From: a virus
Lineage: Duplodnaviria > Heunggongvirae > Uroviricota > Caudoviricetes
DNA: 20,380 nucleotides
Virus record (IMG/VR): IMGVR_UViG_3300045988_001600
Coordinates: 1 to 20,380 of that record
Reading direction: 5' to 3' (one strand)
Shown here in pieces: positions 19,789 to 20,380 of the stretch. The position numbers and the translations under genes are program-made. Position 1 is the stretch's first letter. Each line of letters begins with the position of its first letter. The notes beneath the pieces are model-generated. The model ran no database searches, was not told where the DNA came from, and was given only the letters and a program-made list of their open reading frames with translations.

Positions 19789-19880
19789 TTCTTCTATCAG
19801 CTAATAATCAAAGGCATGAAGTCTATCATCCAAGTCTCAATCGATCGATACTTGCTGTGGTTGATGAGAAAAAACTGAGA

Positions 19881-19916
19881 CACACAAAGCTTTGCACTGG
19901 ATTGCAAGGCTTTGTG
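19881..19916. repeat. Roughly 36-bp imperfect palindrome upstream of gtrA
   Basis: ACACAAAGCTTTGCACTGGATTGCAAGGCTTTGTGT: 9-bp outer arms (ACACAAAGC / GCTTTGTGT) with nested palindromes CAAAGCTTTG and TTGCAA. On the - strand it is followed, after about 7 nt, by TTTTTT. Confidence 0.45.
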
Positions 19917-19928
19917 TCATTCGATAGC

Positions 19929-19950
19929 TAAGGTGGATCACTCCACCTTT
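19929..19950 (+). terminator. Candidate rho-independent terminator hairpin (+ strand orientation)
   Basis: AAGGTGGA tcac TCCACCTT followed by TTTT: perfect 8-bp stem, 4-nt loop, T-run on the + strand only. No convincing + strand gene lies upstream, so its role is unclear. Confidence 0.4.
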
Positions 19951-20380
19951 TCATCAAGCCAGTCCGCCCACCACTGCATCATTTCTCTGCGCTTATCGTG
20001 GCAGATGCCTCACTATCACACGGTGATGGTTCATTACTGGTTTGCATAATGGATAGAGAACTGAGGATAAAAGATATCCCAAAACCCCAAAATCTCATCT
20101 TTAGAATTTGCAGAAAGGGAGGCGTGAACAAATACCTGCGCATGAAAACGGAACTAGTCCAGATGTGATATTTGTGGTGATCACATACATCATCAACGAT
20201 GCTCGTTATGGTGAGTTTGATGACTACCCGCTGAAGTGAAAATAGTGTTGTGTACCAAATTGCGTACCAAACTAAAATCACAAATCATGAAACCCTTGTT
20301 CATGGCGGTTCTCAGGGGTATTGCGCGTAATCGTGAAACAAAAAGGTAGATTGTTGCTTACCGTCATTCATCATTAGGTT

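Follow-up and report, generated by a model that had tools for sequence, protein, structure and literature searches.

At the right end of a 20,380-nucleotide (nt) stretch of a Caudoviricetes genome (IMG/VR virus record IMGVR_UViG_3300045988_001600, positions 1 to 20,380; the whole stretch is referred to here as the window), two hairpins lie upstream of gtrA, the first gene of gtrABC. The pair, a long palindrome and a compact hairpin, is probably a relic of the conserved edge of an integration module: the compact hairpin would be the stop-codon hairpin of a decapitated integrase gene (int), and the palindrome a unit common to lambdoid phages that acts, at most, as a weak barrier to transcription. 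The homology part of this interpretation is near certain, as judged from sequence comparison; the homologies, the integrase stump, and the junctions were observed directly, as was the placement of the palindrome with respect to the gtr promoter of P22. A first-pass annotation had described the hairpins as possible terminators that face opposite ways and shield the gtr operon from read-through out of int. Both hairpins are indeed present, at 19882-19917 and 19930-19949, although the palindrome begins one base to the right of where it had been placed (19881-19916).

The integrase stump and its prophage setting

A block of about 135 base pairs (bp; approximately 19863-19998) corresponds to the 3' end, and the sequence downstream of it, of the IntS-type int genes of HK620, HK633, HF4s, N7, and K-12 CPS-53 (intS). 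From left to right it comprises:

19863-19881, no strand assigned: left edge of the conserved block, including an A6 run, as defined by the left ends of homology to 150 contexts
19882-19917, no strand assigned: long palindrome, a discrete palindromic unit common to lambdoid phages
19918-19929, no strand assigned: spacer between the hairpins, the 3' untranslated tail of the former integrase gene, from alignments to relatives
19930-19949, no strand assigned: compact hairpin spanning the stop codon of the integrase gene, with T4 next to it on the + strand; loop TCAC; stop TGA at 19938-19940 (- strand)
19941-19997, - strand: IntS-type integrase stump of the C-terminal 19 codons (DKRREMMQWWADWLDEKVE), with no difference from the end of K-12 IntS

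Homology to the integrase is limited to these last 19 codons of what would be a full-length open reading frame (ORF) of about 385 amino acids, an in-frame stop follows 4 codons further upstream, and to the right of the hairpins the window contains no integrase gene. When the block was compared with 150 other contexts, homology ended on the left at 19860-19874 in 89 of them and at 19880-19889 in 14, and the breakpoints at the right end clustered at 19915-19919 and 19995-19999. Such truncation is common. A survey of viral contigs anchored on a 21-mer in the 3' end of int recovered 120 distinct contexts, among which 78 carried an intact IntS-type int and 36 carried stumps, the end of the locus being reached in the other 6. 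Stumps of 24 open codons were joined to attachment (att) arms of the 2851 type, as in the window, and stumps of 28 codons stood mostly on lambda-type arms, with the lambda core about 240 bp rightward in most. The remainder of the integrase to which the stump in the window belonged has been replaced by a 2851/sbcB-type att arm, and both hairpins are relics in this prophage. A related arrangement was seen in phage 434 (L009, 1501-1629) and in Gally (L010), where a lambda-type att/int module is combined with a 28-codon IntS stump and both hairpins, which lie just outside tI/sib; in these phages, int transcription running leftward would pass through the 3' end of a second integrase gene of foreign origin.

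The arrangement from which the relic derives can be read from relatives with an intact int. In the K-12 CPS-53 (KplE1) interval between intS and yfdG (gtrA), 92% identical over 19780-19998, the same layout is found, with intS followed leftward by the stop-codon hairpin, the palindrome, the control region, and gtrA; in contrast to the window, intS is intact there and the compact hairpin is weaker (GGTCGC versus TCCACC). The K-12 intS gene is expressed from a promoter in attL, and the paper that reports this contains nothing on the region downstream of intS (PMC2951348). Similarly, positions 1-110 of HK620 are 91% identical to 19893-19998, with the int stop at the same place relative to the compact hairpin; however, a complete, live int precedes the element in HK620 where the window keeps only 19 codons. 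The earlier placement of the hairpins between int and gtr thus describes intact relatives, in which the block adjoins int and has gtrA as its left neighbour in HF4s and K-12 CPS-53, but not the window.

Searches of phage and Escherichia coli sequences identified the end of the window as the right end (attR) of an integrated P22-like prophage, with sbcB as the host insertion gene. Rightward past the hairpins, the IntS-type stump gives way to the remains of a umuD-like gene; the attR core follows at 20326, and after it come 16 codons from the start of sbcB, which read inward:

19986-20233, + strand: umuD-like (Peptidase_S24) gene remnant, 5'-truncated, frameshifted, and interrupted by a stop; belongs to the 2851-type att arm
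20312-20374, - strand: start of host sbcB, with 16 codons followed by 4 phage-encoded codons and a stop; translation MMNDGKQQSTFLFHDYAQYP, then the stop; assigned from the sbcB annotation in uninterrupted genomes
20326-20355, no strand assigned: attR overlap region, with the core CGTAATCGTGAAA at 20326-20338; from sbcB and phage matches

The interval 20326-20380 is matched at 100% by uninterrupted sbcB genes and is annotated there as sbcB; the match to phage genomes stops at 20355. The 13-bp core sequence published for 2851-type att sites, CGTAATCGTGAAA (PMC4159516), stands at the phage-host junction at 20326-20338 and is followed by host sbcB, which makes this a site of the 2851 (sbcB) type. 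As a result of the insertion, sbcB, which encodes exonuclease I, is interrupted after codon 16, and its host-derived start reads MMNDGKQQSTFLFHDY before the four phage codons and the stop. The sbcB promoter is beyond the end of the window and is directed into the prophage, toward the hairpins and gtrABC. The 2851/sbcB-type integrase that matches this att site would lie at the other prophage end, outside the window.

The interval 19867-20355 is a 2851/sbcB-type att arm common to mEp234, the Stx phages 1717 and 2851, Sf101, EC.P3, and E212, and amounts to a stack of relics: integrase stump, dead umuD-like gene, and att arm. The hairpins lie 377-444 bp from the att core and outside it. The umuD-like remnant was recognized by tblastn with an intact 147-amino-acid ORF from locus L121 (E 3e-13, the match being split over two frames with a stop inside) and by Pfam PF00717; its 5' truncation falls at the junction with the integrase stump and its frameshift near 20070-20090. 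An intact UmuD-like gene is annotated beside a 2851-type attP in HK140. Additionally, two adjacent 12-nt direct repeats (TTGTGTACCAAA and TTGCGTACCAAA) lie at 20248-20271, at a distance of about 55-80 bp from the att core; they are candidates for arm-type sites bound by the 2851-type integrase. ARAGORN detected no tRNA or tRNA fragment in the window, and Rfam families matched the hairpins at chance level only (E of at least 0.6, far under gathering scores). The leftward integrase transcript from which read-through had been suspected is therefore without a source in this prophage, since only 19 int codons are present and these are followed by the umuD-like pseudogene, attR, and sbcB.

The compact hairpin is an integral part of the integrase gene end. 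Its arms (19930-19937 and 19942-19949) form 8 perfect base pairs around a 4-nt loop that contains the integrase stop codon, and the last three int codons make up the right arm. The predicted folding energies are -11.9 kcal/mol on the + strand and -14.7 kcal/mol on the - strand (z approximately -4). Perfect 8-bp hairpins are not rare, with 3 in the window against 2.4 in shuffled sequence, and the weight given to this one rests on comparison with relatives rather than on statistics within the window. Where the flanks beyond the int stop are unrelated, a stop-straddling hairpin often recurs with matched changes (GGTGGC/GCCACC, GGTGG/CCACC with other loops, GGGGA/TCCCC). Stop-straddling stems of at least 6 bp were present in 13 of 54 contexts outside the family as compared to 2 of 54 for a control flank of the same loci, with the caveat that the filter defining these contexts is rough and imperfect and that the window itself fell into the set. 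Moreover, an intact umuD-like gene of L121, encoded on the opposite strand, terminates directly ahead of the compact hairpin, and the same ORF end is found in L050 and L085. On the + strand, the tract following the hairpin is T4 (19948-19951), with two T inside the stem, and derives from conserved int codons for Asp, Glu, and Lys; read in the direction of int, the hairpin has no U-tract after it. This layout fits a terminator for a gene that converges on int. In two loci (L092, 1126-1240; L105, 9386-9500), the IntS-type stop is followed by about seven tandem copies of the 8-nt AAACTATT, in place of the hairpins.

A palindrome shared among lambdoid phages

The long palindrome consists of two 15-nt arms (19882-19896 and 19903-19917) with one mismatch (93% complementary) and a 6-nt loop. 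No other hairpin in the 20.4-kb window reaches 14 pairs with one mismatch or none, an arrangement that occurs 0.025 times on average in block shuffles. RNA folding on both strands, which had been recommended as a check, gave -23.4 kcal/mol (z -5.5) for the + strand and -19.6 kcal/mol (z -3.9) for the - strand, so that, together with the compact hairpin, both elements are stable at z -3.9 or lower. The T6 tract of the - strand, which is A6 at 19869-19874, begins 7 nt from the base of the stem, in agreement with the earlier remark that this gap is longer than in a textbook terminator. In an alignment of 70 distinct relatives, the commonest form of this run is A4 (GACAAAAC; GTTTTG) and only 7 have 6 or more, making T6 a minority variant.

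A sensitive search found the long palindrome in 208 phage records, and a scan with its apical 22-mer yielded 83 distinct contexts. In 27 of these 83 it occurs without the end of intS, in some cases beside lambda tI and the lambda P arm and in others beside a different integrase. As a discrete unit of 36-38 bp it is found in lambda, P22, epsilon34, L, SfII, SfX, 21, 434, HK620, and K-12 CPS-53. Its orientation is constant, and in every case examined it marks the outer edge of the att/int module. Among lambda, P22, and the prophage described here it is approximately 80-97% identical, and both flanks are unalignable. The same palindrome accompanies integrases of the IntS, 2851, lambda, and P22/epsilon34 types as well as the phage 21 integrase. 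It marks a hot joint at which at least four different att/int modules meet their neighbours, an observation that is new to us.

In lambda, positions 27472-27509 match window positions 19881-19916 at 35 of 36 positions, in the same orientation and at the outer att/int edge near the attR prophage end. Unlike the copy in the window, the lambda palindrome has unrelated flanks, no adjoining A/T run, and no compact hairpin. On the leftward strand it comes about 25 nt after the U-run of tI, on the P arm side of attP, and it carries no feature on the lambda record that was searched; we know of no function assigned to it. Comparison of the region upstream of gtrA, as the first-pass annotation had proposed, showed that a palindrome of the same family (80-84% identity) is conserved in P22, epsilon34, L, and SfII. 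These phages differ from the window in that attP and a live P22-type integrase directly adjoin the palindrome, and in its loop (TCGGTT rather than CTGGAT).

Several of these copies have been annotated, under different names. The HK620 feature described as 'terminator for prophage excision transcript' (AF335538, 38289..23), a prediction made from sequence, falls on the long palindrome when mapped by alignment. In the SfII record the palindrome is a putative rho-independent terminator on the - strand, in the L record a putative terminator on the + strand, and in the epsilon34 record a 'possible rho-independent terminator for transcription from int' together with two putative CII-binding sites; the 434 and 21 records show putative CII sites. 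All of these labels, whether terminator or CII site, are annotators' predictions and none is experimental. The element is therefore not new in kind, as it is already annotated in several phage records. What is new to us is that the features named 'terminator', on either strand, and 'CII site' in different records are one conserved unit that is also present in lambda. In L063 (10943-11057) the apex of the palindrome is inverted (TTGCAATCCAGTGCAA versus TTGCACTGGATTGCAA), a loop flip such as template switching inside a hairpin would be expected to produce.

The promoter of the gtr operon

The genes gtrC, gtrB, and gtrA are all on the - strand, and the region between gtrA and the palindrome belongs with them by descent:

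19789-19862, - strand: gtr upstream control region, inherited with gtrA; homology runs on from gtrA in K-12 CPS-53, HF4s, EC.P3, and LR-28
19426-19788, - strand: gtrA, first gene of gtrABC, a 120-amino-acid ORF; bactoprenol glucosyl transferase/flippase in LR-28, K-12, and HF4s

In P22, the gtr transcription start is 25 bp ahead of the gtrA ATG and follows the fourth GATC site, GATC4, by 33 bp (PMC2909390). The control region in the window contains a single GATC (19843-19846), 55-58 nt upstream of the gtrA ATG, which is the distance counted for P22 GATC4 in the alignment. Because this distance fits the published P22 geometry, the gtr promoter is probably located within 19789-19862, between the palindrome and gtrA. 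A candidate extended -10 element for gtrA (TGnTAGACT) was read by eye in this interval; a sigma-70 promoter scan of 19300-20380 returned no site at the threshold of the tool. Published reporter experiments in P22 further separate the promoter from the palindrome. There, 115 bp upstream of the start suffices for full expression and phase variation, and a construct with 278 bp behaved alike (791 against 736 Miller units, with similar switching rates) (PMC2909390). By our own placement, the P22 palindrome is at about -155 to -190 from the gtr start, inside the 278-bp construct and outside the 115-bp construct. Since the reporters behave alike with and without it, the gtr promoter lies on the gtrA side of the palindrome and does not depend on it.

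Phase variation of the P22 type is a different matter. The P22 gtr control region has four GATC sites, in two pairs that overlap OxyR half-sites, and is phase-variable (PMC2909390); in the window there is one GATC between gtrA and the palindrome (19843) and another in the compact hairpin (19936). Given one site in place of four, P22-style Dam/OxyR phase variation looks unlikely here. The GATC at 19843 is enclosed by a palindrome of its own (CAAGTCTCAATCGATCGATACTTG, 19831-19854), and the control region also holds direct repeats (TCTATCAGCTAATAATCAA and TCTATCATCCAAGTCTCAA) at 19793-19811 and 19822-19840.

Termination, rival explanations, and implications

Under the interpretation favoured here, the block at 19863-19998 descends from what was the outer edge of the integration module of a lambdoid phage. 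In relatives with an intact int, the compact hairpin most likely ends transcription of a gene converging on int. The long palindrome, in turn, most likely forms an RNA hairpin in transcripts leaving att/int and may be a weak or auxiliary barrier, or a 3'-end structure, that separates the module from its neighbour. In this prophage, the only leftward transcription to reach the hairpins would come from the host sbcB promoter across attR, after about 370 nt without translation, and the gtr operon would have a promoter of its own, located between the palindrome and gtrA. Any effect of the hairpins on transcription is inferred.

Several results weigh against this interpretation. A terminator score of the d'Aubenton-Carafa type was calculated with lambda tI as control and with modern energy parameters, for which the zero threshold is only approximate: tI scored +7.9, the compact hairpin -8.5 on the + strand, and the long palindrome -47 (+) and -49 (-) in the window and from -21 to -79 in lambda, epsilon34, and P22. 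Although both hairpins form stable stem-loops, a U-tract within 0-2 nt of the stem base is wanting at the palindrome, where it is 7 nt away on the - strand and absent on the + strand, and that of the compact hairpin, U4 with two of its residues in the stem, is marginal. On the leftward strand of lambda, too, no U-run follows the palindrome. The tI terminator, which has the same assumed role of stopping leftward transcription out of int/att, differs in having an 11-bp G+C-rich stem directly followed by U6, and a positive score. Neither hairpin was reported by a consensus terminator scan of the window, and intS, yfdG, and gtrA are all missing from those E. coli Term-seq tables that were searchable, nor were 3'-end data found. 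The long palindrome is probably not a strong stand-alone intrinsic terminator. The first-pass view of terminators facing both ways has the annotations of HK620, SfII, L, and epsilon34 on its side, but neither hairpin passes a score that lambda tI passes. The relatives lean toward the + strand, with wobble counts of 98 (+) and 78 (-) and a more stable + strand fold in 54 of 70; this lean is not decisive because it stems mostly from one inherited U-G pair.

In the 70 relatives, the long stem is paired in 86% of cells and six of its pairs show double changes, in a set of closely related sequences that gives such tests low power; with the same limit, covariation was 0.093 as compared to 0.091 in shuffles, 149 of 500 shuffles being at least as high. 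Loop, stem, and spacer are conserved about equally, and this evenness fits recent shared ancestry as well as function. Compensatory variants of the palindrome exist (TTGT...TTACAA, CAAATC/GGATTTG, and the diverged GCAAGGCCTG/CAGGCCTTGC), but many other changes break pairs, and fold energies among the relatives range from -24 to -4 kcal/mol. Further, the isolated phage HF4s (L006, 1561-1675) lacks the left arm and loop of the palindrome, as do L021, L048, and relatives. In HF4s, the loss is a clean deletion of 20 bp that is bounded by two direct repeats, CAAAGCTTTG and CAAGGCTTTG, and the existence of an isolated phage with a half-deleted palindrome indicates that the palindrome is apparently dispensable.

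The most serious rival is that palindrome and stump are a functionless patch copied along with each homologous module swap among lambdoid phages. We consider this possible, though clearly the less probable account. It would explain why breakpoints cluster exactly at the edges of the palindrome and at the stump junction, why recombinants with a P22-type left flank and a lambda-type right flank occur, why conservation is uniform across loop, stem, and spacer with no excess of covariation, why some phages, the isolate HF4s included, carry degraded or half-deleted copies, and why the P22 reporters were unchanged with or without the palindrome (PMC2909390). A functionless patch would, however, be expected to decay or vanish more often than a palindrome that remains approximately 80-97% identical while its flanks have become unalignable, and it does not account for a compact hairpin that is re-created with compensating changes beside unrelated flanks, or for the other strong hairpins that inspection revealed at the same place in two loci with unrelated int 3' flanks. 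At the opposite end, the recurrence of the palindrome in lambda, P22, epsilon34, 21, 434, and HK620- and 2851-type phages might suggest a functional unit in its own right, either a sequence-specific protein-binding site, for instance for CII/C1 through the phased TTGC repeats, or a 'linker' for the exchange of att/int modules and conversion genes. We think this doubtful.

Among specific functions, a site for CII (C1 in P22) has the most to recommend it and is nevertheless improbable. In this model, phased TTGC-N6-TTGC-N6-TTGY repeats would bind the lysogeny activator, which would in turn activate the conversion genes or a promoter facing att. The + strand of the palindrome does contain TTGC-N6-TTGC-N6-TTGT (19892-19915), in which 19892-19905 matches the TTGC-N6-TTGC consensus of the CII -35 region and the third repeat, TTGT, is in phase; lambda retains the motif, and P22 and epsilon34 have it twice despite their different loop, putative CII sites are annotated in epsilon34, 434, and 21 as described above, and the epsilon34 genome paper suggests that CII might activate the conversion cassette (PMC2629481). 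Yet the repeats read away from gtrA, and the copy on the - strand is imperfect. In lambda pRE, the -10 hexamer is spaced about 13 nt downstream of the CII site; read by eye at that spacing, neither strand of the window offers a -10-like hexamer (ATTCGA, TAAGGT), and lambda and P22 are no better. A perfect site is absent from 26 of the 70 relatives, some of which change both TTGC copies in a way that preserves the base pair, and TTGC-N6-TTGC occurs four times in the window against 2.1 expected, which is not significant alone. Moreover, gtr is expressed from the prophage, and the P22 gtr promoter does not need the palindrome region (PMC2909390). A sib-like retroregulator is more improbable still. 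Read-through RNA would pair 19861-19870 with 19948-19957 around both hairpins and create an RNase III site that destabilizes int mRNA, and the outer inverted repeat is present, the 111-nt fold closes (z -5.7 on the + strand, -4.6 on the - strand), and the U-run lies inside the lower stem in a geometry that recalls lambda tI/sib. The left arm, however, is at or beyond the homology boundary and is missing in most contexts, and because IntS-type int stays linked to its downstream region in phage and prophage alike, the lambda logic would not apply. The extended stem itself (19861-19868 with 19950-19957) was rejected on alignment, as 60% of its cells are paired in the 70 relatives and no double-sided change was seen; a literature search on retroregulation or sib found nothing. 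The recombination site that the first-pass annotation had named as an alternative, or an arm-type binding site of the attachment region, is scarcely credible. A dyad in a non-coding stretch between gtrA and the att core invites the idea, but 410 bp, a dead umuD-like gene among them, separate it from the core at 20326, and the same sequence accompanies integrases that bind different arm sites (IntS, 2851, lambda, P22/epsilon34, 21), in phages with at least four unrelated att/int modules. The minimal attP of lambda spans roughly -150 to +80, and the lambda palindrome, at about -222 to -259 from the core centre, is outside it. Two further candidates were discarded: a + strand small RNA spanning both hairpins could not have a conserved promoter, as the left flank varies between contexts, and an integron attC-like reading (AAAC...GTTAAGG) did not fit.

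The reading of the two hairpins as relics of an integration-module edge has practical value for correct annotation: the stretch from gtrA to the prophage end is a stack of relics and not an integrase regulatory region. As it stands, the finding is an ordinary one. If a function of the palindrome were proven, it would make a small addition to lambdoid biology and to the understanding of how conversion genes are insulated and exchanged.

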